A stretch of 64,000 nt of DNA, from NCBI GenBank assembly GCA_000004985.1, contig GG738854.1; one strand, given 5' to 3'. Of this stretch, positions 5,041 through 63,558 are shown one piece after another (the first letter of the stretch is position 1; every line of letters begins with the position of its first letter). Below the pieces are notes generated by a model that saw only the letters and a program-made list of their open reading frames with translations, did not search any database and was not told where the DNA came from. Origin of the DNA: Naegleria gruberi (taxonomy: Eukaryota). Both the position numbers and the translations under genes were made by a program.

Positions 5041-5328
5041 TTTGTTTTTCAATTTTTGAATTTGATTATCCGTCGGAAGCCTTCATATTCTCTTTCTCTC
5101 TCTAGCTGTGTATTAAGATGGATTCAATAGATTGTCTGATAATTTCTTGAAGTTATCTTAAATTGTAATAGAATTTGTGCTTATTGAAATTTTTATTTTT
5201 TAATTTTATTTGATGATTCGGAAAGTTTTTTTAAAAAAAACTTGCTGCTTTAATTATTATTGAATCCTTAATTAGCCTTGAAAACTTTGAAAGTTCTCCT
5301 GTCAGAGCATGTCAACCCATCAAAAAAA

Positions 5329-11300: not shown

Positions 11301-12928
11301 CTTCAATGTGTTTGAATTAATGGCTGCTCCAAACTGGGCACTATTATTAATAAACTGTGAATCAATAACCTTCAAACTGTCTGATGCTATCTCTGAAAAT
11401 TGTTGCAAGTCCAAATAACGAACTGCAGATGCACTGCTCGTTCCCTCAAAAACACATCCAATAATGGATCCATTCCTCACATTTTGTAAGAAGAGAGCTC
11501 CACCATCATTGTCCAAAAATTTTGTACCAACCACAGATGTAGCTTGTGAATCAGCAATAGCAAGAACAGGTAACGTGCCCATATTACTATTTTCCATAAA
11601 GGCAGAGTTTGCAACCAACACAATGTAATAATTTTGAATGGAAACAAAGTGACAGGTTGTGTAACTGAATTGAACATTGGTAATAAAAGCACTAGTACCT
11701 GTCAATGACTCACTACTCTTAACTTGTAAACTTCCAGTAGCATTAAAGTTGGTATCAGAGATTTTAACTTTGGAACACGTTGCACAAGTCATGGCACCAA
11801 CACTGTAACACTGACTTCCAGTGCAATTTGTTGCAAAATTGCTCTTCTCAATTGTGAACTGTCTAGCTGTGTGTCCAAAGATGAAATAGTGTTTTGGTGA
11901 TGTGGATGTGCACTTTTGAGTTGAGGCACCAAGATCTTTACTTTCATCCAAACCAATTGTTACATAACTGGATGCAACATTGAGTGTAAAGGAAACATTT
12001 CTGAATAAAGCTTCACAATTATTATCCAATTCAAAATCAATATATGATTCAGATGGTCCTAAATTCCTCACCACTTGCAAATTTTCATAAAAACAAGTGC
12101 CACCTGAACATTCAACATAAGAATCGACCAGTTTAGAATTTCTAATGACAATATCTGGTTGCCAAGTTGCCGAAAACACATCAAACATTCGATTCAACTT
12201 GTTCATCTCCACCTCTTCAAATATAACTCTTGTTGTGTAAATACTCGAAACATAATCATTCTCTACTGCAATCACAGCATTAACATCCCAATTTACAAAG
12301 GCAATATTGGTGAATGATATTTCCATTTTGAAAGGATTGATTCGTATAAAGGGAGAATAATCAGCACATGAAATGAAAGTCTTTGACAATCCATAAAAGT
12401 TGGCAATAATCTTGCTTTGGATAGCCTCTGAATTGTTATAGTATGGCAAGTCAATTGCACAATTATTACTACCATCACTCACATCTATATTATTCAATAA
12501 ATAAATATTTAATTCTTGTTCTTCCGCTATTATTACATGATAATAATTATAATAGTATTATTAGTATTAATTTACATATGATGATGATTATTATTAATTT
12601 ACATGATGATCATTAATTTACATTGAAAATCAACAAAATTACTATTCGCATATATAAAAACAAACTACCTACCTGTACTAGTCGTATTGAACAGCACACT
12701 CCACCTCTCCAGTACATATTTTAGTGAGTTACATGGCTGAGAAGGGGTAGAACAGGGAAAGAAGTTATTGTTACTGCTGCTACTAGCCTTCGGATCAATG
12801 TAGACACTACTCATTATCTTGGCAATTGTGGTGTTGATGGTCAAAATGTTGAGAAACGATAGCACCACGAGGATAGAAATCAATCGCCACACCTCATGAT
12901 CCCTTCGGGTCATCATTGAATGTCTCAT
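8340..12928 (-). CDS. Receptor-type protein kinase with Pmp-like beta-helix ectodomain, paralog 2
   Basis: Exon 1 is 12928..12673 and begins MRHSMMTRRDHEVWRLISILVVLSFLNILTI (signal anchor). The intron 12485..12672 runs GTAGGT..ATAG; an alternative acceptor would place the exon 2 boundary at 12526. Exon 2 is 12484..8340. The ectodomain (roughly 750 aa) has many GGAVF, GGAIL, GGAMY, GGALY and GGAIF repeats plus FSQN, FQYN and FLHN motifs. The transmembrane segment is ALLISLGVIVALGLTFIILLTTLCLYFF. The kinase domain is in one exon: IGQGGESVIF, VAVK, HRDLKPENIL, DFGLGRE, YMPPE, DSYSFGIIMWELL. There is a long insert between subdomains IX and XI. Stop is TAA. Confidence 0.7.
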
Positions 12929-16678: not shown

Positions 16679-18863
16679 TTATTTCTTCTTTGGTATTTCA
16701 CCATTAGATGAGGAAGTTCTCTTTCTCTTCTTTTCATAGGTTGAGTTATTCGTTTCAGTAGTGCTTAGTTTTGATTCATTTTTTTCTGGATTGGAAACAG
16801 TATCACGTATGGAAGGAAAGAAATATGATCTGTAATCTTGTGTATCGACTATATCTGTAATGCCAAGTAATGCCAAGCATTCTCTTGTGGTAGGTCTTTT
16901 CTTTCTTTCTATGGCCACCATTTGTTTAAGCATGTCAAATAGCATACTACCCTTATTGGGCTCTAGCTCGTGGCATTTGATTGAAATTGTTTGCCATATT
17001 TCATCAGCAGTATTTTCCAACCGTTTCTTATCTATATCATTTTCTAATATCAATTCAATAAAAACTAAACCAAGAGAGTAGATATCAGTTTTTGGATGAA
17101 TAAAGTTTTTCCCTGTGGATTCCTTTTCAGGAGCATTGTAAGAAGAGGTTCCAGCAGTTGACTGTATCCACAAGTTTACGAATTTGCAAGTATCTCCATC
17201 TTCAATGTCAAAACGCTTGGCTAGTTCAAAATCAATGAATTTACAAAAAACGTTTGGGCCTTTTTTTTGGTCGACATTTGTTTCCTTAATAACTGTCGAT
17301 TTTAAATGATCCTCTTCTAATATTATAATATTACTAGGTTTAATGTCATTGTGTATTATCTTTCTTGAGTGAATGTGGTCAATTTCAAGCAGCAGTTGAG
17401 AAATAATGTGCAATTTTTCTTGGTGTGATCGTTTGTTAACAGTATTGAGCTCGGTTCCTGCAATTGATATCTCGATATGTTCTTTACAAACTACATCATT
17501 CACAGTTACTCTGTCATGAAGAAGAAATATATTTCCAATATCAATCCATTCTGGTTTTTCCGAAAGGAAAATCTTTACAAACACTGGTTGAGAGGAATGA
17601 TCAAGCACACCATAGAACATGTCTTTGGTAGCAGTACCTCTTCCTTGACCAGTACTTATCTCGAAAAGATACTCCTGAAGTGTGATAGTTGTTGTAAGCA
17701 CTGTGTCTAATGATGTCGTGAGATGAATCACCAACTTATCACCCTGTGAAATATCAGATCCACTTTCAATAGAACTTTCCATTCTCTTTCTTCCCATAGA
17801 CTCTTTGGTAATTGTGTCGATAAGAATGTTCTCTTCAAAATTAGCTTGTCTACTTGCCTCTAGTAAGAATGAAATAAATGTGTCAAGTAATTGTTTCTCC
17901 TCTGTCGTTGAAGGGTCAAGTGGAAACATCCCAACATTAAATAATTGATATTTGTATCTTTTCTTGATACGTGAAGTTTGTGGAACAAAAGCTTTAATTC
18001 CCAGCACACGAATAAACCTCTTCTCTGTCAGTAATCCATAAGTAACCAGTTTGTCGATTTGGATTGCATGTTTTTCAGAGGGCTTTATGTTTTTAAGTAA
18101 GGTGCCATGAACCATTCTTATTAGAGCCACTACCTTCAAGAAATCAGGGTGAGCAGTCTCGAAGTCTACCTTGTCCTCATGCCCAAACTTTAGACGATTG
18201 AAAGGAACGTCTTTCTCATTCTTTAATTCTAATCCGGAAAAATTATCAGGTGAAATAGTGCCCTGCAGTAAGTTTGCTACTTCCTTGCTGAGATATCTCG
18301 AGTTTTTTATCAAATTGCTGATAGAAACATTTCTAAATTGTTCTGAGCTCTATAATGTTTGGTTAAAAAACTTACTCATTAATTTTGAAGCCGTAGAGAG
18401 TAGGTAGTTGTAATAGTTTGTGGTATTTGGTGTTATTGGTATGAAACATTTCCTCTCCCAAAGAATGCATTTTGGTTGGGTGTAAGCAATCGGATAAAAG
18501 TTGAAAAGCTGCACTCAAATCTATCAAGTTGAAAACATCGACAACATGCCCAAATTTTTCAATGACCAAACGATAATGTGTGGAAATGGCTTCATTGTCC
18601 TGTTTGAGATTGTCAATGAGGCAGAACAATTGTTCTATGAAATTTCGAAAGTCGGTTATCACAGATACTTTTTGTATTGCAGCATGGAGGTTGTGATCCA
18701 AATGATGATGACGATCTGAAAGCCAAGTTACTTGCAATAAATCCTCTGCAATACAGAGTTTGTGGTTGAATTCTTCGGAGCCTTCTCTCCAGATATCTTT
18801 GCGAAGATCGAGGTTCTTTTTCTTGTGGAGTTCCTCAAGCTTTTCATCAAAGGATTTTGTCAT
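16679..18863 (-). CDS. Atypical protein-kinase-like protein (possible pseudokinase)
   Basis: Exon 1 is 18863..18376 (MTKSFDEKLEEL...). A 43-nt GTAAGT..TTTAG intron spans 18333..18375. Exon 2 is 18332..16679. The C-terminal kinase-like fold carries HNDIKPSNIII in place of HRD and IDFELAK in place of DFG. It retains GTSSYNAPE and DIYSLGLVFIELI. No glycine-loop GxGxxG was seen. Confidence 0.6.
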
Positions 18864-29951: not shown

Positions 29952-31429
29952 GTTGTTATAGTTCTTCTTAATAATAGGGATGAAAATGTTTTTCTATTGG
30001 AAAGAGTTTGATCTTGGCAGGACGAATATCGTGGAGGTGGTTAATAATTATTATATTGGACGAGTTCGTGGAATGGTGTTGAGATCAGAGTAATATACAC
30101 AAGAGAGAGAGAGGAGGAATTAAAGTTGTTTTTTTTGAATGTGCTACTTTATCTCAGTAAGGGTGAGTGTTTAAATTGTGAGGAGGATTACACTGAATGA
30201 TTCGCTTAAATGCAACAACAAACTGCTTACTTGTCTCAATTATCAAGAGAGGTACCACCTAAAAGTACGTTCAAGGAATTGGAGTTAACAGGAGCGCGAG
30301 ATTTGAGTGCAAAAATCTAGCGCTACTGTGTTTTACTGTAATTTTGCACCATTTACTTTGTTTTACAGCGCTTAATTTGTGCATTCAAAATGCTAGAAAT
30401 GATTGTGTCATTGAGTAATGAGTCCAAACGGTTTATTTCAACGGTTAGAGTGGTGGTGTCAAACGAAAATATTATGTGGAGAATCTTCAAACGAAAACAT
30501 TACTTGGAAGAATGATGATATGTAGGACAATCATGATAAGTATTAATGAGTTTTGCAAATAATTGAGTAATGGCTCAATTCTTTGCTCAACTAACGCAAC
30601 AATTAATGGCTTGGTTGTTGAACAAACTCAGGAACACAAGGAACAAGATTATTGGAAGGTTAACTTTATACACTGAGATCTTGCGTTGGAGTTTTTGCAC
30701 CAATTTGTTGCCATTACGGTCGCATATTTTCCATTATTTCACTAGGTGAATCTATTAAGCACACAAAAGATTTTTCACACAATGAAAATTTATCAACATA
30801 TCAAATGAATGAGACAAATACCGTGAGTGGAATCATCAGCTTAATAGTTACAGAAGATTGGACAATTTATTTCTTTGGAAACAAGTGGCTTGGTAATGAA
30901 GTTGGGACAAGATGAAGAAAATTCACCTCAAAAACAAATTTTCCTCATCTGACCGATCTGTAAGGATCAAATGTAATAGGACTATTCCACAAGTTCATCA
31001 TTATCTCCCTCAAGAGCTCTTCAACTGGTCCTTCAGGTACTGGTGTTGTTCCTTCTGATCCTTCTGCTACCATTGCAGAGAAGGGTAAGATAATTTCCTA
31101 TTGTTCTGTCTTTGAGCTTTAGATTTCTTGGTGTTGGATTTGCCATTACGTTGTGGTCTCGAACGTTTTTGAATGGAGGTGAAAGTTTGATGAGTTTGAT
31201 GAGTTGTAGTATGAGCGATCATACAGAGGATGAAGAATTTGAATGAACAACAATAACATGCAGATTATCCAGAAGAATATTGCTTTGCGATGAAGCATCT
31301 TGTTCTAGGCTACTTTTTTCGCCTGAAAAACAGGCAAAAAATATTTAGGCCAAAAAAAATAGCCTAAAATGTCTAGGCGCAAAATAGTAGGGTGCTTATT
31401 TGATGGACAAAAGTTCTTGGTGTTGCCTT

Positions 31430-48906: not shown

Positions 48907-49794
48907 ATGAGCAAACACAATACTTGGGGAGGATCATCACCTTCATTATCGTCGACCACTAAATTAATTGTCGGATTATTTGTCCTCCTATTGATTGTAC
49001 AAACAACAATCGGATCAACATTAAATTTATCGAGTACAAGAATTGATACCACTCTCAATACAACACAAATAGAATTTCGACCTCTTGATCCATCAGCACC
49101 ATCGTCTATTCCTAATTATAATGTTGGAACACAAGTATCGCTGAGTTTTTCCTTCTTTTCTATTGAACATTGTTCTTTTGATATTGTAGTAGTATCAAAA
49201 CACTCTAAAAAGGAATATTCGACAAATGGTGGAATTTATCAATACAATACTAATGGAACTATTGAAGAAAAGGAATTAAAAATTACAATTCCTACTGAAA
49301 TTGATACTGCTGAAGGAGCTTATGTTTTCAGATTAAAAAAGAAGGTTGAAAAGGTATCTCAAGAATTGAATTTTGACTCTCCAGAATTTACTGTCACTGT
49401 CAATGTTGACAATACATCATTATCATGGCCAACTATTGTTTTAATTCTCTTCTTCCCACCAGCTCTGCTCCTAGTTGCAGTTGTAGGTGGTTGTGTCATG
49501 TGTAAACGACAACGTCGAGTCCAACAACAAGAATTGGAACAACACGATTATGAACAACAATTGGATGATGATGTTGATATCAATTTCGATCACGATGATG
49601 AAGAGGAGAATCATCACCGTCACCACCACACCTCCAAGCACCATCAAACAAATAAGAAGAAGGAAGAACCCAAGATGGCCTTTGTCTTGGAAGATGACGA
49701 TGATGATGAGCCAATGTCTAGTAGTCATATTCACATTGATGATGATGATGAAAATGAACGTCGTGGCAATTTCTACTATACCAAGAATATTTAA
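48907..49794 (+). CDS. Type I membrane protein with acidic, His-rich cytoplasmic tail
   Basis: 295-aa ORF from aaaaaaaATG to TAA. It has a signal anchor (LIVGLFVLLLIVQTTIGS) and a roughly 150-aa ectodomain. The transmembrane segment is WPTIVLILFFPPALLLVAVVGGCVMC. The tail contains ENHHRHHHTSKHHQTNKKKEE and DDDDDEPMSSSHIHIDDDDENE. Confidence 0.5.
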   Translation: MSKHNTWGGSSPSLSSTTKLIVGLFVLLLIVQTTIGSTLNLSSTRIDTTLNTTQIEFRPLDPSAPSSIPNYNVGTQVSLSFSFFSIEHCSFDIVVVSKHSKKEYSTNGGIYQYNTNGTIEEKELKITIPTEIDTAEGAYVFRLKKKVEKVSQELNFDSPEFTVTVNVDNTSLSWPTIVLILFFPPALLLVAVVGGCVMCKRQRRVQQQELEQHDYEQQLDDDVDINFDHDDEEENHHRHHHTSKHHQTNKKKEEPKMAFVLEDDDDDEPMSSSHIHIDDDDENERRGNFYYTKNI

Positions 49795-50344: not shown

Positions 50345-53077
50345 ATGCAAACTACATCTCTTCAAGAAAATTCAAACATTAGAAAAGAATTGTTCAACAA
50401 AAACAACTCCTCATCATTAAATTGTCAAAGCTCACATCATCAACATACAACTTTCTCAACTATCATGTGTTCCTCCTCAACAATGGAATCAAATTTTAAT
50501 TTACCTCCAAGCAACAAGAAGGAAGAGAAAAATCAACAAGAAAACAAAGAAGAAAAATACAGCAGTGCTGGTGGCGACAATGGAAAACATTATCAAGAAC
50601 AACAACGGATAGATGTTGCTGTAACATCATCATCAGCATCAGCATTGGAAGGAAAAGAGGATGGTATTACTCGGACAGTGTCTAGTTTAAATCCTTCTCC
50701 ATGTACAAATAATTATAATAATAATACAACAACAATAATAATAACCGATAATAATCAAAACGAGAGAGGAAAATTAGAAATGTATATTGATACTAATAAT
50801 TTACGTTTACCACTTTCTCCTTCTGCATTGTCTGTCTCCTCATCAACATCAGATGGCACACCAACTAAAATTCCAACCTCCACTAATTGCTCACCATCAC
50901 GACCTTTATCTACTATTTTGCATAATAATAATAATAATAACAATACTAATAGTGCCTTGCTCTCATCGAGTACATGGTGGAGAGAAAGATTATTCCCTAA
51001 GGAATTACTACCAAATTCTACTCTCACATCAGCACGAGCTTCATCATCAGCACTGAATTTCAACATAAGTCTCATCGATGAATCAACATTTGATACACTT
51101 GCTCCTTCATCATTGTCCTCTTCTCGTTTGGATGCTATTCATACATCTTCAGAGGGTGAGTTTTCAGAGGAAACACTCCTAGAACATATAAGCAAGGAGT
51201 TGTGTTCGAATATGCGTGAGGAAGAGCTTGAACAAGTTTCCACACCAGCTGTGGTTGACCATATATTACGAGAGATGAAGTTTTCAAAACAGAAATGTTC
51301 ACTAGTACACTTGGCAGCAAAACATAATCGTGTAGAACTCTTGCAGTGGTTTAAAAGATGCTGTTGCGATAAAAAGTGTTCCTACAAGCACATACCCATC
51401 TCTAAACTACTCAACTCTGACAAATCTTCATCAATAACGGATTCATCATTTTCTATTTTGGAAAGTAAGAGATTTAGCAGGAATTTTGGAAAAAACTTTA
51501 ATGTTGCCATAAGGCACTTCGACTCATTGGATGATGACAGTTCTTCCCAACATTCCAAACAGTGTCTACTTAAACAACAATCCTTGTGGTTTGCTTTGGA
51601 CCATTATTCTGCAACACCTCTCTTTTATTCTTGCAAGCATGCACAAGCCATGGAGGCAAGTGCTTTTCTGTTATCTCAACCAAGTGTCTCACAGAAACAG
51701 CTCAACCATCACCATGATCAATTTGGAAACCTTCCAATAACTATTGGATTTAGAAATGGAAATTTCAGACTATGTGACTTGTTGGTTTTGTTTGGAGCCA
51801 AAATTGATGTTACTTCAGGAATTCTTGCTGAAAGTCTACTTCACAAAGTTTGCAGAGATGGTGCAGATTTGGAGGTTGTTAAATATTTGGCTAGGTTTGT
51901 TTTATTCATATTTATTTTCAATATATCATCATTTATTCAATTCAGGAATGCACCAAAAGTCTTACTCAAAAGAAATCAAAGAGATGAAAGTGCACTGTTT
52001 GCCTGCATTAGGGATTTGAGAATGGTTCTCATTCCATCAAGTGGAGGCTCCTTCAGCAGTGATATAAGTCTTTTCCACAATAGAAAGAGTTCTAATGGAG
52101 TTAGTGATACATCATTCACTCTCCTTCATAATATTCTTTCCTATGGATCGGAATTGTTTGGAAGGGAAACATTTGAGAAGGCTGTTCTCATGAAAAACTC
52201 ATTCGGAATGAATATTTTAATGACGAGTATATTGTACAATGATATGGACGCAATGAAAGTGATTTGTCTTGGACTTTCCAACTATTGCAAACCTGGAGGC
52301 GCTAGAAAAGTTGATCTCAATACTTCACAAATGAGTGGAGATTCGACTGGAAGTGGTAGTAGTTCAGAGGGTATTGCTGCTGTGGATGATCAGATACCTT
52401 CTCCAAGAAAGAGAAATTCTCTCCGATTACGACTTCACCAGAGAATTTTATCGATGGATAAAAGGGATTCAAACAAAAGCATTCTGAAAACAATTGTATT
52501 CGATAAAGATAAGCAAGGAAAGACAATACTCCATCTCATAATTGAGACAGCTATTCAATTAGAAGATAATGGAGCATCATGGGACGATTTGATTGACTGG
52601 TTTGATGGATTCCAATGGCTTTGTTTGTGGCTAACTGAAGTTTTTTCACAAACGTTGAATGTTAGAACAAATGGTGAGTGGACTGCAGATTGTGGGCTGT
52701 GCCACTTTTTTGAAGCTAGAGACTTGCAAGGTTACTCACCATATGGAATGGTGGTATCCAAACAACCAAATGAGGAAATGAACTTTTTGGAAAAGGAGAG
52801 CACCGATGATAGAGTACTCTTCTGGCCAAGAGTTTTGGAGTTCATTCAAACAACGATAAAGAAGTGGGCAGTCTCTGAAAAGGTCAAGAATACATCTGAG
52901 AATAACCTGAATGGTTCTCGTAACAATTTCAGATATGCTGAAGTGACAGGAAGCAGGGGATTTTTAAATTCTGAATCAGATTCACTCGATTCCCTCTATG
53001 CAGATCAAGGTGAGGGAATTTTAGGCAAAATGAAAAGAAGATTCAAGAGAACTCAAAGTGTCGATTTGGACAAATAA
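50345..53077 (+). CDS. Ankyrin-repeat-containing protein with long low-complexity N-terminus
   Basis: 910-aa ORF. The N-terminal 300 aa are rich in N, S and T. Ankyrin-like units are present (SLVHLAAKHNRVELLQW, TPLFYSCKHAQAMEASAFLL, GNLPITIGFRNGNFRLCDLLVLFGAKID, SLLHKVCRDGADLEVVKYL). A probable 51-nt in-frame intron spans 51895..51945 (GTTTGT..TTCAG); it reads through as a hydrophobic junk segment if retained. Confidence 0.5.
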   Translation: MQTTSLQENSNIRKELFNKNNSSSLNCQSSHHQHTTFSTIMCSSSTMESNFNLPPSNKKEEKNQQENKEEKYSSAGGDNGKHYQEQQRIDVAVTSSSASALEGKEDGITRTVSSLNPSPCTNNYNNNTTTIIITDNNQNERGKLEMYIDTNNLRLPLSPSALSVSSSTSDGTPTKIPTSTNCSPSRPLSTILHNNNNNNNTNSALLSSSTWWRERLFPKELLPNSTLTSARASSSALNFNISLIDESTFDTLAPSSLSSSRLDAIHTSSEGEFSEETLLEHISKELCSNMREEELEQVSTPAVVDHILREMKFSKQKCSLVHLAAKHNRVELLQWFKRCCCDKKCSYKHIPISKLLNSDKSSSITDSSFSILESKRFSRNFGKNFNVAIRHFDSLDDDSSSQHSKQCLLKQQSLWFALDHYSATPLFYSCKHAQAMEASAFLLSQPSVSQKQLNHHHDQFGNLPITIGFRNGNFRLCDLLVLFGAKIDVTSGILAESLLHKVCRDGADLEVVKYLARFVLFIFIFNISSFIQFRNAPKVLLKRNQRDESALFACIRDLRMVLIPSSGGSFSSDISLFHNRKSSNGVSDTSFTLLHNILSYGSELFGRETFEKAVLMKNSFGMNILMTSILYNDMDAMKVICLGLSNYCKPGGARKVDLNTSQMSGDSTGSGSSSEGIAAVDDQIPSPRKRNSLRLRLHQRILSMDKRDSNKSILKTIVFDKDKQGKTILHLIIETAIQLEDNGASWDDLIDWFDGFQWLCLWLTEVFSQTLNVRTNGEWTADCGLCHFFEARDLQGYSPYGMVVSKQPNEEMNFLEKESTDDRVLFWPRVLEFIQTTIKKWAVSEKVKNTSENNLNGSRNNFRYAEVTGSRGFLNSESDSLDSLYADQGEGILGKMKRRFKRTQSVDLDK

Positions 53078-53288: not shown

Positions 53289-56200
53289 ATGTCTGTTGCA
53301 GAAGCTTCTAATAATGGTGCAGCTGCAACTACATTTATTGAAAGGAGTATTAATTTTAATGAATCATCAACCATACAACAATCATCATCACAACAACGAG
53401 AAAATCAACATGTGTCGGGAAGTTTTATAGGAAGCAATACGAGTAGTTCATCTAGCTCGACCAATTTTTCAGCAACAATGATGAAAAGTATTAAGGAAGC
53501 TATTGTGTCCTATATAATTTCAATGCAATACAAGCCACTGAGGCAGGGCAAAAAGTTTATGCTTCTCTCTGTTTTGTATCATTTGTATATAATGTGGATT
53601 TCCATCTTTTTACCAACACTAGGCGATTATAATTGGGGAGAATATGCAAATTGGATATTCAAGGCAGTAAATTATCCAGTAACCCTTTCACTAGATTTAA
53701 TTCCCTATGGTGGCATTGAGGCTTTGGGAGCAATTGTGTTTGCAATCAGTGCCCTATCTGTTCTTGTTGTTATAATGGCAGTTGCGAGTGTTCATAGGAC
53801 GAGTAAACACATTGAGAGGGTGAGATTAATAGTAATGGTGACTGGACTTGTTCTCTCTCTGTTGGGACCACTCTTTGCATTTATTCTGACGGGCTTTACA
53901 GATTGTGAATACAAGCAAAAGGTGTACTTTGAGAGTATAGATGATAAGGCATATGCTCTTTCTAGATATCCAGAAGCAGAGTGCTTTGGGGATAATATGT
54001 ACCTTTACATTATTTCAATTATTGCAGTATTCGGAATTTGTCTATCCATATTATGCACCTTAATTTCCTTCTCATCAAGTTGGAAGAGTGACATGGTATT
54101 CAAAACAGTTGTCCATTATCCATTATCATACTTGGTTATTAGTAATATTCTTCAAATGTTCATCATGTATTTTATTCATGATGAGTTCATGTATGGAAGA
54201 GCAATCCTTCACTTGATTATTTCAGCAAGTTGGATTCCTATACTATTCTATGAACTGCCCTTCCAATACAGATATGAAAATTCAATTTATTCTGGAGTGG
54301 GTTTTGCAAGAATAGGAGCATCAATTGGTTCTCTGATATCTTCCCTTGCCAACTCAGCTGACAATTCAGGTTTTGGTTTGGGAATGTTTGGCTTAACGTT
54401 CGCTCTTATTATCATTTCATTCATTGGTGGAGTAATAGGAATGGAATTATACATTAGATTATCTACTCACAAGATTAGAAGTTACATGTTGTCTATTGTT
54501 GAGAAAACTCTATCTGTTAGTGGATCATTGCCTTCGAAATTCAAAGAAAGAGCCAAATACATTCTGGAAAAAGAGGCCACTTCAATTTACTCCCATTTCA
54601 TTGAAACACAACAGGCAGGATATTTAAGAATATTTATTCGATTCAGCATTGATCAAAACTCTAAAAACAGCTCAGAAGCCATCCTCACAAACACTGATTT
54701 ATCTCTGTATTTCATTAAGGGTGCGTCAACTCAAAGATCATTCAACGATAGCAAAACTCTTCTCTATTCATCCATGTTAATTTATTTCAACTATGGAGAT
54801 GGTAATTTAGGATCAATGTATGCAAAAGGGTTGTTGAAAATCTTGGCAAAGCAAAAATTGAATATACCAGAAGTAATTATGTTAACAGAGTTTTCTAAGG
54901 AAATTAAGGATGAGAATAGTGTAAATTCATCTGATCTCGAACAATTATTGAATAAGGTAGAGAGTAATATAGCTGAATTGAAGTCCCTCCATAAGGCCTT
55001 CTGGAAAGAATATTTGCAAGATGTAATTGAAGTGGGAACTTTGGAATCGATTAATAACAAGTGTTCACAACTGATGAGCCAATGCGAAACTATTTTCAAT
55101 AATAGGCTTTCCAGATACAAACACAATAAGAATTTCCTCAGAGCGTATGCACAATTTTTAAACGAAATCAAATTTGACAAGGAAACTGCCTTTGAAATAT
55201 TCCAAGACGCAGCCATTGTTGACGAAGATGAGCCATCTAAAAAACGTGTTCTTGCTAAGAGTAATTTATTCACAGAATATGGTAAACAGCATTCTGAAAC
55301 CAATTTGGGGTTTTCTCTAGATGGCTTAAAGGCTAGCAACCAAAAGAGTATGGACATTGAAACAATTCATGAAGATCAAATGTTGGATGGAGTTGAGAAT
55401 GATCCACTTGCAAAACGGGAGTTCATTTTCAAAAGTGCTCTCTCCCAACCACAACAAGGAGGATATCATATGGGATCTGTTATCCTGTTCTGCTTTATAT
55501 CCTTCTCTTTTGTGCTCCTTGCCTTAGTTTTGAATGTTTATTATTCAGTGGAAGTTCTTTCAAATGTCAAGTTTGTTCAGCAAGTTTGTGAGCCAACTGT
55601 TTCTTCATATGCCATTTTGAAACAAATCAGAAATAATCAAATACTCCTTCAAGCTAAAAATCAGGGTCTAGATGTTGATGAAACAGATATTATGGGTATT
55701 CTTAAGGACGAGACAAACGAAAATATTACTTCCATACAATCTGTTTGGAAGGAGAGACTTAATTTCTATGTTGAACATATTGAACATGTTAAAAAGATGT
55801 CACAAGGTAAAATTGTTGGAAAATTCACACCTGAAATGTATGAAGATTACAATAGTGAAACAAATGAAATATTTGTTCCTGTGATTCAAACAAAGAATCA
55901 AAATTCATTCATTGAGGTCATTAAGAAGAATGTTTCACTCTCTGAAATATCATCACTCTTGATTGATATTGTTGAAAATTATCCATCAGGAGGATACAAT
56001 GAAACATTGAAAGAATATGATTTCATGTTGGTATTCTTGAATAGGGAAACTTTCACAAATGCCTTTGTGAAAACATGTTTCAGTTTCTTGGAAAGATGTG
56101 AACTTGACTCCAAAAATTTCAACAATTACTACCTATACTTTTATGTTTCTGTATTGTCATTTTACATTCTTTACACAGCCATCTATATTCTCTATGTAAG

Positions 56201-58316
56201 AATTGAATTCTCATTTATCACTAGAACCATTAGATTAATGGAACGCAGTATTTCAAAGGATATTGTAGGTAAAATCTATCAAGATTTGGCAAAGAAAGTA
56301 GAAGAAAATGCTTCTTTGGGATTTCTCAAATCAATAATCAGCCAACCAAAAGTGTTTTCTGTTTTTTGTATTGCTTGTTTGGCTTTTCTTACAATACTTG
56401 CATCTTCAATGATGTTCGTAGAGTTGAGAATTAATTCTGATCTAGGATATTCAACAATGTTGAGTGTGCATAAGACCGCCGAAAATCTTGTTTTGGTTCA
56501 GTCAATTGGATACAAACTAAATGAGATTTTCTTTTCCACTCTATCACCCTCTTTATATAATGACCCTATCTTAATCAATGGAACCCTCTTAGATTATTAC
56601 AGGGTGGAGGTGAGATACAATGTAACAGATTTGAGAAGAAGTTTTAACGAATTGATTTATGGTAAGCTTGGAGGAAATTCAGCAATTTTAGGAATGATAC
56701 CAAGAATTGATCAGATTATTACAGGAACTGATTGTTCTTCTGGCAATTGTACAAGTTTGGAAAACTCTTTGGACGAATTTACAATTGGATCTAGCAAGTT
56801 CAACGAAGATTTGCTTAAAGGAACTTTTACAGAGGAAGAGTTGGTTTTAAAGAATGCTGTTGTGGATGAATTGAGCCACCACCTAAGTGTAGACTTTCTT
56901 GAATTTTTGGCCTTGTTTACCATTGCAAGATCAATACCTTCTACTGCTATTGCACTAATTTTCAGTATTCTTGGATTTCTCACAATAGTTATTTTCTATT
57001 GGTTACTGGTTCGAGTGTTTCAAATTCATTGGAATGATGTATTCCATTTAAGAAGCATGTTGAACTATGTAGATTATGACTACTTGGATTCTTATGACTC
57101 TTTAAGAAACTTTATTCTATACCATCAACTGCCTTCTAGAAACCTGTTCAAAAAGAAGAATAAGATTGCCTCAGCAGAGGGTGACGAATCGAAGGTGAAG
57201 AATATTCTCAATGCAGCAGTTGACGGAGCTATTCTTTGTAATAGTACATGTGATATTGAAATATTCAATCCAGCAGCTCAAAGAATGTTTGGATGCAAAC
57301 AATCAGATACTTTGGGAACTCCAATTTTCACTCTCTTTGATAAAGAATCGAGGACAGAGTTGGAGAGAGTCATTTCTGAATTGATTAAGAATGCCAAATC
57401 GACAACATCTTCTGAAAGTCTTGGTGAAACTGTTGAATTGGATTGTGTGAGAAAGAACTTGACAAAATTCCCTGCGAAAATCAATTTGTTCTCAACACTG
57501 TTTGATGGAAAACCAGTTGTGACATGTTTCATTAAGGATGCAACTTCTGAAAAGAAACAAAATGCATTGTTGGCTGAAGAAAAGAAAAAATCTGAAAATC
57601 TATTGAGATCTATTTTGCCAGAAAGTGTTGCCAATAGATTGAAATCTGGTGAAACATTCATTGCTGAGAAATTTGCAGATATTACTTGTTTCTTTTCTGA
57701 CATGGTTGGATTCACTCAAATGTCTTCAACTCTCAATCCAACTCAATTGGTTGGAATGTTAAATAATATTGTGAATGGATTTGATGCCTTAACAGACAAA
57801 TATAGTTTGGAAAAGATCAAGACAATTGGAGATGCCTATTTCTGTGTTGGAGGAATTGGAAATACACAATCTGATCACCCAGAAAGAATACTTCGTTTCT
57901 CAATGGACATATTCTTAGTAGTACGTAACTATAACGAGGAGAATGGGAAAGAATTTGGACATCAAATCAATATTCGAGTTGGAGTGAATACAGGAAGTGC
58001 AGTTGCAGGTGTGATTGGTACAAAGAAATTTGCCTATGATTTGTGGGGTGATACCATCAACACTGCTTCTCGAATGGAATCAACATCAATTGCTGGAAGA
58101 ATTCAAATTTCCAGATCAACTTATGAAAGAGTTTATGATATGGGTCTTGAATTTGAAGAAAGAAGTGTTGAAGCAAAAGGAAAGGGTTTGTGTCTCACTT
58201 ATTTAGTCAAATCTCATCACCATGCACAGGCCATAGTTTCTGATAACGAAATCATTGATTCTGACCTCGAGGTTTCCCTAACTACAAAACCAGAGGATGC
58301 AAAGGCAGAGATATAA
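53289..58316 (+). CDS. Polytopic membrane protein with PAS domain and class III adenylyl cyclase catalytic domain, paralog 1
   Basis: Single 1675-aa ORF from ATG to TAA. The N-terminal cluster has about ten transmembrane segments, and there are more downstream (about aa 745, 950, 1020 and 1220). A PAS-like fold is present (NILNAAVDGAILCNSTCDIEIFNPAAQRMFGC...PVVTCFIKDATSEKK). The cyclase core has FADITCFFSDMVGFT, KIKTIGDAYFCVGG, RVGVNTGSAVAGVIG and FAYDLWGDTINTASRMES. The metal-binding Asp residues, the transition-state Asn/Arg and the Lys...Asp specificity pair are all present, indicating ATP specificity. Confidence 0.85.
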   Translation: MSVAEASNNGAAATTFIERSINFNESSTIQQSSSQQRENQHVSGSFIGSNTSSSSSSTNFSATMMKSIKEAIVSYIISMQYKPLRQGKKFMLLSVLYHLYIMWISIFLPTLGDYNWGEYANWIFKAVNYPVTLSLDLIPYGGIEALGAIVFAISALSVLVVIMAVASVHRTSKHIERVRLIVMVTGLVLSLLGPLFAFILTGFTDCEYKQKVYFESIDDKAYALSRYPEAECFGDNMYLYIISIIAVFGICLSILCTLISFSSSWKSDMVFKTVVHYPLSYLVISNILQMFIMYFIHDEFMYGRAILHLIISASWIPILFYELPFQYRYENSIYSGVGFARIGASIGSLISSLANSADNSGFGLGMFGLTFALIIISFIGGVIGMELYIRLSTHKIRSYMLSIVEKTLSVSGSLPSKFKERAKYILEKEATSIYSHFIETQQAGYLRIFIRFSIDQNSKNSSEAILTNTDLSLYFIKGASTQRSFNDSKTLLYSSMLIYFNYGDGNLGSMYAKGLLKILAKQKLNIPEVIMLTEFSKEIKDENSVNSSDLEQLLNKVESNIAELKSLHKAFWKEYLQDVIEVGTLESINNKCSQLMSQCETIFNNRLSRYKHNKNFLRAYAQFLNEIKFDKETAFEIFQDAAIVDEDEPSKKRVLAKSNLFTEYGKQHSETNLGFSLDGLKASNQKSMDIETIHEDQMLDGVENDPLAKREFIFKSALSQPQQGGYHMGSVILFCFISFSFVLLALVLNVYYSVEVLSNVKFVQQVCEPTVSSYAILKQIRNNQILLQAKNQGLDVDETDIMGILKDETNENITSIQSVWKERLNFYVEHIEHVKKMSQGKIVGKFTPEMYEDYNSETNEIFVPVIQTKNQNSFIEVIKKNVSLSEISSLLIDIVENYPSGGYNETLKEYDFMLVFLNRETFTNAFVKTCFSFLERCELDSKNFNNYYLYFYVSVLSFYILYTAIYILYVRIEFSFITRTIRLMERSISKDIVGKIYQDLAKKVEENASLGFLKSIISQPKVFSVFCIACLAFLTILASSMMFVELRINSDLGYSTMLSVHKTAENLVLVQSIGYKLNEIFFSTLSPSLYNDPILINGTLLDYYRVEVRYNVTDLRRSFNELIYGKLGGNSAILGMIPRIDQIITGTDCSSGNCTSLENSLDEFTIGSSKFNEDLLKGTFTEEELVLKNAVVDELSHHLSVDFLEFLALFTIARSIPSTAIALIFSILGFLTIVIFYWLLVRVFQIHWNDVFHLRSMLNYVDYDYLDSYDSLRNFILYHQLPSRNLFKKKNKIASAEGDESKVKNILNAAVDGAILCNSTCDIEIFNPAAQRMFGCKQSDTLGTPIFTLFDKESRTELERVISELIKNAKSTTSSESLGETVELDCVRKNLTKFPAKINLFSTLFDGKPVVTCFIKDATSEKKQNALLAEEKKKSENLLRSILPESVANRLKSGETFIAEKFADITCFFSDMVGFTQMSSTLNPTQLVGMLNNIVNGFDALTDKYSLEKIKTIGDAYFCVGGIGNTQSDHPERILRFSMDIFLVVRNYNEENGKEFGHQINIRVGVNTGSAVAGVIGTKKFAYDLWGDTINTASRMESTSIAGRIQISRSTYERVYDMGLEFEERSVEAKGKGLCLTYLVKSHHHAQAIVSDNEIIDSDLEVSLTTKPEDAKAEI

Positions 58317-58515
58317 TGAATCCATTTTGGTAATATAGAATCATTTTATTTGCCAATATATTTTCCTTTTTTGTCACTTAACGATTCTGACAACCAATGA
58401 TGGCGATGTTAGTGAGTTACAGAAATGGCGGGTAAAACATGAAATCTCAATTCTTATTAAAAAAAACATCATTAACCCTTCTTGAATACAAAAAGATATT
58501 GGTTTGCTTTTTAAA

Positions 58516-61500
58516 ATGTCCGGGAGTGATGAGTTGGAGGCCTCTGCTATAGAAGACGACCAAAGATCTAATTATTTCGAATCGAGGACTCATATGAAAG
58601 GAAATGGAGAAGGCTCAAGTATTGTTGGAAGTGCACTAAGTGTTCAATCGAATAATAGTACAATAGCCTCGACAACTATGAGAACAGTGCAAACTGGAAT
58701 ATTGACTTTTATTTTGGCTCTACAGGATAAATCATACAAGAAATCAAAGAGGTTTATTTTTATTTCAATACTGTATCATTTGTATATCATTTGGACTTCA
58801 ATCTTCTTACCAACACTAGGCGAATACAATTGGGGAGAGTATGGAAGTTGGATTTTCAAAGCACTTAATTATCCAATCACATTTTCATTAGATTTGGTGC
58901 CCTATGAAGAGAGTGCTGCAATTGCAGGTGTCATTATGGCTGTCATCTTGTTGGGTTTGTTTTTTGTGTCATTTTCTGCTTGGACTGTTTATAGAAATAG
59001 CAAGTTGGTTGAAAAGATGAAAGTGGTAATGGCTGTGTCGAGTTTGGTGTTTTCAGTGCTGAGCAAACCATTTGCTTTTGTTTTGGCTGGTTTTATTGAT
59101 TGTGACTTTTCAAAGACAGTTTACTTTGAAGATATTGATGATAATACTAATGCACTTTCTCGATTCCAAACAGTTGCTTGTTTTGGAGGTAACACGTACT
59201 TGTATGCACTTTCGATTATTTCAATGCTTGCATTTTCTCTAGTGATACTTTCAACTCATTTTGCCTATTCTCCTAGTTGGAGGAGTAAGGTTGTGTTTCA
59301 TACAGTTGTTGGTTGGCCCATTACCTATTTGGTTATTTCAAACATGCTTGAGATTTATCTAATATTCTTTATTCCAAAATCTGAAATTTGGGCAAGAGCT
59401 ACTTTACATTTGGTAGCAGCCCTGACATTTGTTCCAATGATTCTAATTACACTTCCCTTTCAGAGACGTATTGAAAATTCCTTCTATCTTGCTGTAGCTT
59501 TTGCAAAGGTTGGATCTTCAATTGGTTCACTCATTTCTTCCTTGGTCAATTCTAATAATAAGTGGGATTTAGGTCTTGGAATGTCAGGTTTAACAATTGG
59601 TCTCATTATTTTAGGTTTCTGTGTTGGATTCATTGTGATGGAGTTGTATATACTAAGAACAATGGCTTTCATTAGACACAAGATGATTAAGGCCATCGAG
59701 AGAGGAGTTTCCATTTCAGATACTGCTCAAACTCAACTTTCAGAGTCTGCAAAAATGGGCCTTGAAAGAGAAGCTACAAATATCTATTCCTCACTTCATG
59801 AATCACAAAGTTTGAACAAGCTCAAAATATTTATTAGGTTTAACATAATCCGAAGAAGCAAGCAAACAAAGGCAATACTAGACGATACGGATATGTGTCT
59901 CGCATTTATTAAGGGTGTTTCTCATCAGAAAACATTCAATGATCCTTCTCTAATATTGTTCTCCAGTTTACTTATCTATGTCAACCATCCAGATGAATCG
60001 AATAGCTCAATTTTTGCCAATAGTTTGTTGAAAAAAACTACGCGAGTCAAGTTATCATTCTTTGAGAAAGTTACCCTTGGTGAGGTTACCAAAGAATTGA
60101 ACATCTCTAAAAATGGTAAAGTTGCAAGAAACACAACAGACTTGGAATCATTGCTAGTTAGAGTTGATTCAAATTTTTCGCAACTCAAATCTCTTCACAA
60201 ATCCTTCTGGAAAGAATTTTTACAAGATGTTGTTGACACTACTAACTTGGAAGTTATCAATAGTAAATGTGCTCAATTGATGGCTGACTCTGAAAATATT
60301 TTCCACAATAGAATTTCAAGATATAAGAATAACAAAACCTTCTTGAGATCATATGCTCGCTTTCTAGATGAAATCAAGTTTGACAAGGATCAAGCTGCTG
60401 AACTCTTCCAAGAAGCAGCAACTATGGAAGAGGAAGAGCTTGCCACAAAGAGAAGGAGGCAGAGAAAGTTTAGTCGTGTTGTGCCCTATGATGGACCTGT
60501 AGTAAGCGTTGAACCTCCTGCATTCTCTCTCGATGGGTTGAGAAAGGGAACAAATGAACCAATTACAAACCTAATGGATGATGATTTTGATGATCATATG
60601 TTGGATGGTGTTGAGAATGAACCTGCAACTAAGAGAGAGTATGTTTTCAAAGCGGCTCTAGCACAAAAGACCAACGGAGAGTTGCACGTGGCCTCTGTAG
60701 TAATGTTCTGCCTTCTTTCATTTGCAATAATACTTGTTTCCCTTGTGTTGAATGTGTATTATTCAGAGGAAGTTCTTTCAAATGTCAAGTTTGTCCAACA
60801 AGTTTGTGAACCAACTGTTTCTTCATATGCAATCTTGAAACAAATCAGAAATAATCAAATACTAATCCAAGCAAAGAATCAGGGTATTGGTGTTCAGGAA
60901 GCTGAACTAATTGACGTCTTGGAAATAGAAACAGATAGCAACATTACTGTAACAAGTTTAAATGAGATTTGGAAGGAGAGACTTAATTTCTATGTTGAAC
61001 ATATTGAACATGTTAAAAAGATGTCACAAGGTAAAATTGTTGGAAAATTCACACCTGAAATGTATGAAGATTACAATAGTGAAACAAATGAAGTATTTGT
61101 TCCTGTGATTCAAACAAAGAATCAAAATTCATTCATTGAGGTCATTAAGAAGAATGTTTCACTCTCTGAAATTTCATCACTCTTGATTGATATTGTTGAA
61201 AATTATCCATCAGGAGGATACAATGAAACATTGAAAGAATATGATTTCATGTTGGTATTCTTGAACAGGGAAACTTTCACAAATGCCTTTGTGAAAACAT
61301 GTTTCAGTTTCTTGGAAAGATGTGAACTTGACTCTGTGCAATTTGATAACACTTTCCTCTATTTCTTTGTTGGTTCTGCCTGTTTTTATATTCTGTCCTC
61401 CCTAATTTACATTATTTACATCAGGATTCAATTCACTCTAGTTGCCAACACACTGGCATTATACGAAAGACATTTAACAAAAGACTTGGTTGGTAAGATC

Positions 61501-63558
61501 TACCAAGAATTAGGAAAGAATGTTGATGAGAATTCTACCACTAGCTTCCTTAAATCTTTCATTACCAAACCAAAGGTATTTTCTTTTGTTTGTATCCTTT
61601 CTTTGGCTTTTCTTACAATTCTTGCATCATCAATGATGTTTTTGGAGTTGAGATTGAACTCTGACTTGGGATTTTCAACCATGTTGAGTGTGCGCAAGAC
61701 TGCAGAATCATTAGTGTTGGCCCAATCAATTGGGCACAAGTTGAATGAGCAGTTCATATCAACACTTTCTTCATCTATTTACAATGATCCCTTGCTTGTA
61801 AACAACTCAACAATGAATCTATTCAGATATGAAGTGAGATATAATGTTACTGATTTTAGAAGAACATATAATGAGCTGATTTACGGAAAAATAGGAGTTT
61901 CACCAACCATTCTTGGCGCCATTCCAAAGATTGATGAAATTATTACAGGAACAGACTGTACTGCTGGAAACTGCACAAGTTTGGAAAACACAGTCGATGA
62001 GTTCACTATTAAATCAAGCAAGTACAATGAGGATTTGATGAAAGGTGTTTTCTCTCCAGAGGAGCTAATTTTGAAAAACACAGTAGTTGATGGTTTGGTA
62101 CATCATTTGTGTGTTGATTTGTTAGAGTTTTTGGCCTTGTTTACCATTGCTAGATCAACACCATCAACAATTATTGCACTTCTATTCGGTATATTTGGAT
62201 TTTCTGCCGTAGTGTTATTTTTTGGCTTGTTGAACAAGGTGTTCCACAATCATTGGAATGATATTTTCCATTTAAGAAACATGTTGAATTATGTTGGATA
62301 TGATCACTTGGATTCCAGTGATCCTTTGAGAAACTATGCTTTGTACAATCAGTTACCAGGTAAGAATATATTCAAAAAGAAGAATAAGATTGCCTCAGCA
62401 GAGGGTGATGAATCCAAAGTAAGAAATATTCTCAATGCAGCAGTTGATGGAGCAGTGTTGTGTAACAGTGCATGCGATATTGAAATATTCAATCCAGCAG
62501 CTCAAAGAATGTTTGGATGCAAACAATCAGATACTTTGGGAACTCCAATTTTCACTCTCTTTGATAAAGAATCGAGGACAGAGTTGGAGAGAGTCATTTC
62601 TGACTTGATTAAGAATGCCAAATCGACAACATCTTCTGAAAGTCTTGGTGAAACTGTTGAATTGGATTGTGTGAGAAAGAACTTGACAAAATTCCCTGCA
62701 AAAATCAATTTGTTTTCAACACTGTTTGATGGAAAACCAGTTGTGACATGTTTCATTAAGGATGCAACTTCTGAAAAGAAACAAAATGCATTGTTGGCTG
62801 AAGAAAAGAAAAAGTCTGAAAATCTATTGAGATCTATTTTGCCAGAAAGTGTTGCCAACAGATTGAAATCTGGTGAAACATTCATTGCTGAGAAATTTGC
62901 AGATATTACCTGTTTCTTTTCTGACATGGTTGGATTCACTCAAATGTCTTCAACCCTCAATCCAACTCAATTGGTTGGAATGTTAAATAATATTGTGAAT
63001 GGATTTGATGCCTTAACAGACAAATATAGTTTGGAAAAGATCAAGACAATTGGAGATGCCTATTTTTGTGTTGGAGGAATTGGAAATACACAATCTGATC
63101 ACCCAGAAAGAATGCTTCGTTTCTCAATGGATATTTTCCAAATATTGAGAACCTACAATGAACAGAATAGAAAGGAATTTGGACATCAAATCAATATTCG
63201 AGTTGGAGTGAATACAGGAAGTGCAGTTGCAGGTGTGATTGGTACAAAGAAATTTGCCTATGATTTGTGGGGTGATACCATCAACACTGCTTCTCGAATG
63301 GAATCGACATCAATTGCTGGAAGAATTCAAATTTCCAGATCAACTTATGAAAGAGTTTATGATATGGGTCTTGAATTTGAAGAAAGAAGTGTTGAAGCAA
63401 AAGGAAAGGGTTTGTGTCTCACTTATTTAGTCAAATCTCATCACCATGCTCAAGCAATCATTACGGATGATGTTGTTGATTTTGTTCCAGAAGAAGAAAA
63501 GGATGAGCAAGACTTGGAAGTAAGCTATCCTGTTAGGTCCAGTAAAGATGAAGAATAA
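58516..63558 (+). CDS. Polytopic membrane protein with PAS domain and class III adenylyl cyclase catalytic domain, paralog 2 (tandem duplicate)
   Basis: The ATG at 58516 (MSGSDELEAS...) opens a 1667-aa protein in the frame of ORF 58504..63558 (1684 aa as tracked from TTG 58504). The stop is TAA. The architecture is co-linear with paralog 1. The N-terminal membrane domain is about 60 to 70% identical to paralog 1 at the protein level. The 3' half contains long stretches about 99% identical at the nucleotide level. The cyclase core is identical except for one patch (ILRFSMDIFLVVRNYNEENGKEF versus MLRFSMDIFQILRTYNEQNRKEF). Confidence 0.85.
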   Translation: MSGSDELEASAIEDDQRSNYFESRTHMKGNGEGSSIVGSALSVQSNNSTIASTTMRTVQTGILTFILALQDKSYKKSKRFIFISILYHLYIIWTSIFLPTLGEYNWGEYGSWIFKALNYPITFSLDLVPYEESAAIAGVIMAVILLGLFFVSFSAWTVYRNSKLVEKMKVVMAVSSLVFSVLSKPFAFVLAGFIDCDFSKTVYFEDIDDNTNALSRFQTVACFGGNTYLYALSIISMLAFSLVILSTHFAYSPSWRSKVVFHTVVGWPITYLVISNMLEIYLIFFIPKSEIWARATLHLVAALTFVPMILITLPFQRRIENSFYLAVAFAKVGSSIGSLISSLVNSNNKWDLGLGMSGLTIGLIILGFCVGFIVMELYILRTMAFIRHKMIKAIERGVSISDTAQTQLSESAKMGLEREATNIYSSLHESQSLNKLKIFIRFNIIRRSKQTKAILDDTDMCLAFIKGVSHQKTFNDPSLILFSSLLIYVNHPDESNSSIFANSLLKKTTRVKLSFFEKVTLGEVTKELNISKNGKVARNTTDLESLLVRVDSNFSQLKSLHKSFWKEFLQDVVDTTNLEVINSKCAQLMADSENIFHNRISRYKNNKTFLRSYARFLDEIKFDKDQAAELFQEAATMEEEELATKRRRQRKFSRVVPYDGPVVSVEPPAFSLDGLRKGTNEPITNLMDDDFDDHMLDGVENEPATKREYVFKAALAQKTNGELHVASVVMFCLLSFAIILVSLVLNVYYSEEVLSNVKFVQQVCEPTVSSYAILKQIRNNQILIQAKNQGIGVQEAELIDVLEIETDSNITVTSLNEIWKERLNFYVEHIEHVKKMSQGKIVGKFTPEMYEDYNSETNEVFVPVIQTKNQNSFIEVIKKNVSLSEISSLLIDIVENYPSGGYNETLKEYDFMLVFLNRETFTNAFVKTCFSFLERCELDSVQFDNTFLYFFVGSACFYILSSLIYIIYIRIQFTLVANTLALYERHLTKDLVGKIYQELGKNVDENSTTSFLKSFITKPKVFSFVCILSLAFLTILASSMMFLELRLNSDLGFSTMLSVRKTAESLVLAQSIGHKLNEQFISTLSSSIYNDPLLVNNSTMNLFRYEVRYNVTDFRRTYNELIYGKIGVSPTILGAIPKIDEIITGTDCTAGNCTSLENTVDEFTIKSSKYNEDLMKGVFSPEELILKNTVVDGLVHHLCVDLLEFLALFTIARSTPSTIIALLFGIFGFSAVVLFFGLLNKVFHNHWNDIFHLRNMLNYVGYDHLDSSDPLRNYALYNQLPGKNIFKKKNKIASAEGDESKVRNILNAAVDGAVLCNSACDIEIFNPAAQRMFGCKQSDTLGTPIFTLFDKESRTELERVISDLIKNAKSTTSSESLGETVELDCVRKNLTKFPAKINLFSTLFDGKPVVTCFIKDATSEKKQNALLAEEKKKSENLLRSILPESVANRLKSGETFIAEKFADITCFFSDMVGFTQMSSTLNPTQLVGMLNNIVNGFDALTDKYSLEKIKTIGDAYFCVGGIGNTQSDHPERMLRFSMDIFQILRTYNEQNRKEFGHQINIRVGVNTGSAVAGVIGTKKFAYDLWGDTINTASRMESTSIAGRIQISRSTYERVYDMGLEFEERSVEAKGKGLCLTYLVKSHHHAQAIITDDVVDFVPEEEKDEQDLEVSYPVRSSKDEE

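Follow-up and report, generated by a model that had tools for sequence, protein, structure and literature searches.

Mosaic Similarity of Two Tandem Cyclase Genes in Naegleria gruberi, Best Explained by Interlocus Gene Conversion

Introduction

Two neighbouring cyclase genes of the free-living heterolobosean Naegleria gruberi raise a simple question: how can paralogs be practically identical over hundreds of base pairs and saturated with synonymous differences in the sequence next to it? The genes lie head to tail on one strand of a 64,000-nucleotide stretch of contig GG738854.1 (assembly GCA_000004985.1). This whole stretch is referred to as the window, and all positions are counted from its first letter. 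The window has a GC content of 33-35%, and its genes match records of N. gruberi strain NEG-M exactly.

An initial annotation, made from the sequence letters and a list of open reading frames (ORFs), had attributed the pattern to recent, repeated gene conversion and not to uniform purifying selection. The analysis presented here leads to the same view. Interlocus gene conversion between anciently duplicated tandem cyclase genes is very probably the explanation of the mosaic, and it is also the best one that we could find. This conclusion is based on a large contrast in synonymous divergence (dS) between adjacent segments, on sharp segment boundaries, on older stretches of intermediate divergence and on a stepwise change in divergence relative to a third paralog.

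The Tandem Genes and Their Near-Identical Tracts

The two genes, here called gene 1 and gene 2, have the same orientation, as initially annotated, and the spacer between them, estimated at about 200 bp, measures 199 bp. A common Pfam architecture is found in both. The annotated length of 1675 amino acids is correct for gene 1, whereas gene 2 encodes 1680 amino acids from the annotated ATG instead of 1667. The gene 2 product is 100% identical over these 1680 residues to EFC47530.1/XP_002680274.1 (NAEGRDRAFT_47156).

For the comparison, both genes were aligned by codons, dS was estimated per segment, and a hidden Markov model (HMM) was fitted to the string of matches and mismatches; an independent repeat finder and blastn gave results in agreement. 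Two blocks of about 99% nucleotide identity had been reported for the pair, and their coordinates were right within 1-2 nt. The first block, tract A, is 99.2% identical. In the second block, tract B, positions 57252-58225 pair with 62476-63449, and the block splits into tract B1, a putatively unconverted island of 43 bp, and tract B2 (Table 1). The island corresponds to a divergent patch that had been located at about 57895..57950. The three tracts A, B1 and B2 are 98.6-99.6% identical against a background of 51-80%. The offset between each tract and its downstream partner in gene 2 is exactly 5224 bp, and all indels of the alignment fall outside 55730-58245.

Two older stretches of intermediate identity were detected in addition, one of them directly adjoining tract B1. 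Segments outside the tracts and the older stretches are synonymously saturated, with a proportion of synonymous differences (pS) of 0.70-0.83. For the segment 56112..57250, described as clearly diverged, a protein identity of 68% was measured over 56111-57251. The 5' halves of the genes were reported to be 60-70% identical at the protein level, but the measured values are lower, with 48.5% protein identity and 58% nucleotide identity.

Table 1. Positions of the genes, tracts, older stretches, islands and domains in the window
Feature	Position	Partner in gene 2	Strand	Description
Gene 1	53289..58316		+	Intact ORF of 1675 codons; membrane bundle, TPR_TmcB, four more membrane segments with two predicted outer loops, PAS_9, class III cyclase
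Gene 2	58516..63558		+	1680 aa; architecture as gene 1; NAEGRDRAFT_47156
Intergenic spacer	58317..58515		.	199 bp
Older stretch	55515-55667	60733-60885	+	88% nt identity; dS 0.52
Diverged island between older stretch and tract A	55668-55743		+	76 bp; 2-codon indel; low-confidence loop in model
Tract A	55744-56110	60968-61334	+	3 mismatches in 367 bp; dS 0.044; aa 819-941
Older stretch adjoining B1	57147-57251	62371-62475	+	86% nt identity; dS 0.75
Tract B1	57252-57907	62476-63131	+	9 mismatches in 656 bp; dS 0.060; PAS core, coiled-coil linker, first half of cyclase
Putatively unconverted island	57908-57950	63132-63174	+	18 mismatches in 43 bp; dS saturated; aa 1540-1554
Tract B2	57951-58225	63175-63449	+	1 mismatch in 275 bp; dS 0.033; second half of cyclase domain
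TPR_TmcB (PF25474), gene 1	54906-55229		+	Pfam
PAS_9	57222-57545	62446-62769	+	Pfam
Class III cyclase domain (Guanylate_cyc)	57663-58211	62887-63435	+	Pfam

Evidence for Gene Conversion

The mosaic and its statistics can be read directly from the alignment. Uniform divergence of the two genes was disfavoured: a three-state HMM with identities of 0.51, 0.80 and 0.99 was strongly preferred, as judged by the Bayesian information criterion (5070 versus 6024), and its boundaries lie within two bases of those read by eye. When only codons for conserved amino acids were considered, the longest run of identical codons was 72, compared to a maximum of 41 in 5000 permutations. The fraction of conserved residues with identical codons is 0.97 in the tracts, compared to 0.50 outside and 0.68 in other stretches of local conservation. 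The earlier observation that the identity includes synonymous positions is reflected in the dS values, which are 0.03-0.06 in the tracts and saturated elsewhere. This corresponds to a more than 40-fold contrast between adjacent segments, with boundaries that are sharp to a few bases. Because the contrast reaches synonymous sites, constraint on the protein cannot explain the near-identity. Together with the arrangement as direct repeats 5.2 kb apart, the dS contrast and the step-like boundaries make non-reciprocal homologous exchange the best explanation.

Synonymous sites could also be held constant without any exchange, if selection acted on the nucleotide sequence itself through an RNA element, an antisense gene or extreme codon selection. 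An antisense ORF of 145 amino acids is indeed present inside tract B of both copies, at 57278..57715 (-) and 62502..62939 (-). However, these ORFs mirror the conserved sense frame, and the same antisense frame matches the homologous gene of Naegleria fowleri; they were therefore rejected as genes. No Rfam family was matched in the region. Moreover, both a third N. gruberi paralog and the N. fowleri homolog can be aligned to the tracts in frame, which indicates that the tracts are integral coding sequence and not inserted elements, and an embedded RNA or mobile element was rejected on these grounds. The lower codon identity of equally conserved protein stretches argues against nucleotide-level selection as well, and such a constraint would not produce step-like boundaries. 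The probability of this explanation is close to nil.

A technical origin, in which reads of one copy supplied the consensus for both copies or a repeat had partly collapsed in the assembly, has a certain appeal because the tract lengths (367-974 bp) are about that of one Sanger read, and the reference is a draft whole-genome shotgun assembly made from Sanger reads. Nevertheless, the two copies differ at 13 sites inside the tracts, 12 of which are third codon positions, an excess with P = 1.7e-5 for a random distribution over codon positions. Of the 13 differences, 10 are synonymous and 11 are transitions. The dN/dS ratio, i.e. nonsynonymous relative to synonymous divergence, is 0.06-0.08 in tracts A and B1, tract B2 is free of nonsynonymous differences, and both ORFs are intact with no frameshift. 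The preference for third positions points to two real, selected copies instead of an assembly artefact. The 13 differences look like the footprint of substitutions in two separate selected genes after homogenisation and not like consensus errors or reads placed twice, and both genes remain under purifying selection. Furthermore, each tract is embedded in frame, and at the exact 5224-bp offset, between unique diverged sequences on both sides, and stretches of intermediate identity beside the tracts are not expected from misplaced reads. An assembly artefact is thus very improbable.

Layers of Age and Possible Donors

If conversion occurred repeatedly, different parts of the genes should differ in the time since their last exchange. 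This was addressed by comparison with P0002, a third paralog of N. gruberi (49% identical) encoded on another scaffold, and with P0003, the closest homolog from N. fowleri (1779 aa, 32% identity; VFQX01000016.1, L001 10001..15612). For each segment, the distance between genes 1 and 2 was divided by their mean distance to P0002, with 95% bootstrap intervals. The ratio falls stepwise from 5' to 3': it is 0.98 (0.86-1.12) in the N-terminal bundle, 0.72 (0.62-0.86) in the TPR region and 0.51 (0.43-0.61) in the middle region where this lies outside the tracts, whereas the tracts have a ratio of 0.03 (0.01-0.06). The intervals do not overlap. In the N-terminal bundle, the tandem genes are as far from each other as either is from P0002, and the N. 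fowleri outgroup is at about the same distance from each of the three paralogs. These similar outgroup distances imply that the differences between segments reflect history, i.e. coalescence times, and not rate. In combination with the stretches that show a dS of 0.5-0.75, the stepwise ratio points to homogenisation events that preceded those seen in the tracts. These data support repeated homogenisation that became progressively younger and narrower towards the outer-loop-1 and PAS-cyclase modules.

The same data can be arranged in the reverse order, with a recent duplication of the whole gene (dS about 0.05) and a subsequent replacement of the N-terminal part, the middle, the patch and the tail from distant paralogs. 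Donors for such replacements are conceivable, since Naegleria has at least 81 cyclase genes (PMC9928731) and a search with the middle region retrieved 95 representative proteins, at least 20 of which have the full architecture; the mutual distance of the N-terminal bundles, which equals their distance from P0002, would also fit. On the other hand, apart from gene 2, no N. gruberi protein exceeds 49% identity with full-length gene 1. In the protein search, the closest other N. gruberi proteins reached 49% overall and 57-62% in the PAS-cyclase region, and no nearer donor was found, which argues against a recent import of the diverged segments from any known third gene. A recent duplication should also have left similar surroundings, but the flanks and the intergenic DNA are dissimilar: blastn (word size 7) of the spacer against the sequence upstream of gene 1 and downstream of gene 2 gave chance-level matches only, and a blastn search of flanks and spacer for residual similarity that would mark the duplication unit found none. 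This lack of shared similarity suggests that the duplication is old. Finally, this history would take no fewer than five independent imports, all of which would have to leave saturated dS, in contrast to two or three conversions in the preferred model. A recent duplication with later imports is therefore highly unlikely.

Unequal crossing-over in a once larger array, which would have produced hybrid genes instead of non-crossover conversion tracts, has likewise a slim chance of being correct. Direct tandem repeats do undergo unequal exchange, and the stepwise fall of relative divergence from 5' to 3' resembles the legacy of a hybrid gene. However, tract A and tracts B1/B2 are internal and flanked by saturated sequence, so that each would require a double exchange, which is formally equivalent to conversion, and among the homologs found only two copies are located on this scaffold.

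When gene conversion is accepted as the preferred explanation, the following history appears plausible, in which the mechanism and the number and order of events are our interpretation. An old tandem duplication would have produced two receptor-type PAS-adenylyl cyclase genes, whose synonymous sites are now saturated and whose flanks can no longer be aligned. Non-reciprocal homologous recombination between these direct copies 5.2 kb apart would then have repeatedly overwritten parts of one gene, most simply as the non-crossover outcome of double-strand-break repair. Older events may account for the flanking stretches of intermediate dS and for the generally higher similarity of the 3' two-thirds compared to the 5' third, while the latest events probably generated the three tracts of 367, 656 and 275 bp, which differ by about 1% and encode nearly all of the cytoplasmic module and the larger part of predicted outer loop 1. 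We infer that tracts stop where an indel or very high local divergence removes homology. Short hypervariable islands would thus survive within homogenised modules, as in the 43-bp patch in a helix of the cyclase domain and in the indel-bearing loop ahead of tract A.

Some observations weigh against gene conversion or against parts of this history. The GC content at third codon positions (GC3) is 0.20-0.29 in the tracts and 0.31-0.36 elsewhere and gives no sign of GC-biased conversion, although this feature is not required; as GC3 is not raised in the tracts, GC-biased gene conversion was rejected. The divergences of the three tracts are indistinguishable (Fisher P = 0.30 and 1.0) and are compatible with one recent episode or with several, which means that the three youngest tracts cannot be ordered in time. 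In addition, the protein database is evidently incomplete for the N. gruberi genome, because gene 1 is absent from it, and a hidden third donor is conceivable.

The N. fowleri homolog is single-copy at its locus: no second cyclase is present within 10 kb, and none of its flanking genes is shared with the window. This suggests that the tandem pair or else its position is confined to the N. gruberi lineage. Orthologs from closer relatives were sought in a metagenome scan, which gave one match with 46% identity, and in a word-based protein search with the middle region, which gave no matches. Exact-protein look-ups for P0001 and P0002, meant to retrieve the P0002 DNA and a second, independent copy of the locus, were likewise without a match. 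Positive selection in the unconverted islands was considered as a separate possibility and was rejected, as nonsynonymous divergence (dN) is below the saturated dS.

Homogenised and Diverged Parts of the Protein

Hydropathy analysis divides the proteins into an N-terminal bundle with six or seven hydrophobic segments ahead of the TPR_TmcB match, a soluble region of about 340 amino acids that contains the cytoplasmic TPR, and four further segments at about 730-748, 952-970, 1025-1043 and 1223-1241, giving approx. 10-11 hydrophobic segments in all. The TPR_TmcB match scores 48.3 and 49.6 bits in the two genes, above the cut-off of 27; a literature search on TmcB retrieved nothing about its function. 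Basic residues beside the membrane segments agree with the positive-inside rule. Since the PAS-cyclase module must be cytoplasmic, the loops 749-951 (outer loop 1) and 1044-1222 (the second outer loop) are predicted to be extracytoplasmic, a topology that is derived from hydropathy and the positive-inside rule.

The C-terminal module consists of a PAS domain, a coiled-coil linker and a class III cyclase domain. PAS_9 scores 49.3 and 48.3 bits in the two genes (cut-off 27), and the modelled PAS fold, at residues 25-130, is a five-stranded sheet accompanied by helices, with a predicted local distance difference test score (pLDDT) above 90. The cyclase domain (PF00211) scores 174.6 and 178 bits versus a cut-off of 21.9, and the catalytic motifs FFSDMVGFT, KIKTIGDAYF, YDLWGD and NTASRMES are present in both genes. 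In an alignment of 36 sequences, D184, K224 and D228 are invariant and D297, N304 and R308 nearly so. By analogy with adenylyl cyclase structures, we take these residues to comprise the two metal-binding aspartates, the lysine and aspartate that specify ATP, and the asparagine and arginine of the transition state. The full catalytic set is thus present in one chain, and the domain is predicted to be an adenylyl-specific class III cyclase. The PAS-linker-cyclase module was modelled with a pLDDT of 86. Its best structural matches are the mycobacterial Cya (TM-score 0.88-0.91 on target, 39-40% identity) and soluble guanylate cyclase chains. Among PDB sequences, AC9, AC8, AC5 and Cya are matched with E-values between 1e-47 and 1e-66.

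According to the initial annotation, the converted tracts cover the PAS and cyclase domains while the putative sensory N-terminal membrane domains diverge. This is correct for tract B, which together with its older 5' extension spans amino acids 1287-1645, from the N-cap helix of the PAS domain to four residues past the Pfam cyclase domain, and thus almost coincides with the cytoplasmic module of PAS, coiled coil and cyclase; the older stretch itself encodes the N-terminal cap helix and the first strand of the PAS domain. Tract A does not follow this rule, because it belongs to neither domain and lies in the loop between the hydrophobic segments 730-748 and 952-970. This predicted outer loop 1 models as a helical bundle with moderate confidence (pLDDT 71, four-sequence alignment), and the older stretch upstream of tract A encodes its first helix and the end of the preceding membrane segment. 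Divergence is found in the membrane bundle at the N-terminus, in the TPR region, in the second outer loop and the membrane segments on either side of it, and in the C-terminal tail. Homogenisation has thus affected the output module together with one putative sensory loop, and the division is not simply one between PAS and cyclase domains and sensors.

Within the cyclase model, the 43-bp island corresponds to residues 253-267 of the long helix 243-269, which is located between the metal-binding KIKTIGDAYF hairpin and the next strand. The same segment is the most variable part of the cyclase domain in the 36-sequence alignment. The equivalent helix of mammalian adenylyl cyclase contributes to the G-protein binding groove, and class III cyclases build their active sites across the dimer interface. 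It is tempting, though rather unlikely, that selection maintains the homogenisation, with the shared module and most of outer loop 1 allowing heterodimers to form as easily as homodimers and with the island, in a surface helix, shielded from conversion as a paralog-specific docking surface for a regulator. In such a case, one heterodimeric enzyme could integrate two sensor inputs, provided by the diverged N-terminal bundle and the second outer loop.

The Locus and Its Neighbours

Upstream of the pair, the ORFs at 44366 and 48907 correspond to EFC47526 and EFC47528. The exact protein of gene 1 is absent from the protein collection; no identical or near-identical record was found in protein searches, and the best match in a full-length search is gene 2 (66%). 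The GenBank numbering leaves one slot, EFC47529, between EFC47528 (48907..49794) and EFC47530 (gene 2), and this slot would have to be shared by two ORFs, namely an ankyrin gene at 50345..53077 and gene 1. Gene 1 thus appears to lack a protein record of its own.

For the ORF at 48907..49794, a 4.5-kb metagenome contig in ENA encodes a protein of equal length (295 aa; P0226) that belongs to the same 90%-identity cluster, which indicates that a very close Naegleria relative is present in a public environmental assembly. Three large protein-kinase ORFs are found in the first 18 kb of the window, at 2329..5052 (-), 8340..12497 (-) and 16679..18313 (-). At the end of the first, a kinase domain is present with its first half only, which hints at an intron or a split gene model, and the second contains a weak match to a Chlamydia-PMP-type repeat in its N-terminal part. 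Two short arrays with a 28-bp period and about two copies each, at 30459..30513 and 31326..31384, are located in an ORF-poor stretch (29951-33406).

Implications

The pair represents a clean case of mosaic concerted evolution with several age layers, set in a free-living heterolobosean whose cyclase family is very large. It would mean that paralogs on Naegleria chromosomes undergo homologous recombination, a finding relevant to the question of sex and recombination in the genus. For practical work, phylogenetic trees of Naegleria cyclases that are built from PAS or cyclase domains will misdate duplications, and the near-identical tracts will confuse short-read mapping, expression estimates and primer design. 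The result is therefore useful for the annotation and the phylogeny of the Naegleria cyclase family.

Comparison with Known Systems

At the level of the protein, the C-terminal module resembles homodimeric class III cyclases such as the mycobacterial Cya/Rv1625c (5o5k/5o5l) in its modelled fold, and it shares the order of PAS, coiled-coil and cyclase with soluble guanylate cyclase. Different from both, it is fused to a membrane and TPR region of about 1290 residues that has no solved relative. The model of outer loop 1 resembles bacterial four-helix-bundle and NIT-type extracytoplasmic sensor domains (Tar/Tsr, NarX/NarQ, PcaY, NasR), with 6-13% identity; as helical bundles match readily, this likeness is taken as a resemblance only.

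Trypanosomatid receptor cyclases have one membrane span and a large extracellular domain. Membership of the Naegleria proteins in this ESAG4/GRESAG4 type was rejected, because they contain about 10-11 hydrophobic segments, a cytoplasmic TPR and a PAS domain. The closest parallel in evolutionary terms is nevertheless found here: in a cluster on chromosome 9 of Leishmania, tandem paralogs of putative receptor adenylate cyclases show two high-similarity regions within low-similarity sequence as well as species-specific clustering, a pattern attributed to recurrent gene conversion (Rogozin et al. 2020, PMC7400496; cited in PMC7719234). Both cases thus concern tandem adenylate cyclase paralogs of a discobid protist with discrete blocks of high similarity. 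They differ in that the Naegleria proteins are predicted to be multi-pass, with TPR_TmcB, PAS and two predicted helical outer loops, and in that one of the homogenised regions is located in a predicted outer loop. The Naegleria proteins are analogous to the trypanosomatid receptor cyclases in evolutionary behaviour and are not members of that family.

Naegleria genomes encode the recombination and mismatch-repair genes involved in such exchange (PMC9928731), and our literature search found no paper describing such conversion for Naegleria.

Primate globin and opsin genes and the RHD/RHCE pair are classical examples of interlocus conversion between tandem duplicates. As in these examples, sharply bounded tracts with lengths between a few hundred bp and about 1 kb, identity at synonymous sites, divergent regions that escape and old direct paralogs a few kb apart are seen in the Naegleria pair, and there is no difference in principle. 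The host is a heterolobosean amoeba for which, to our knowledge, no sexual cycle has been observed, and the exchange may be mitotic. The mosaic of the two cyclase genes is a new instance of a well-known process and involves no new mechanism.

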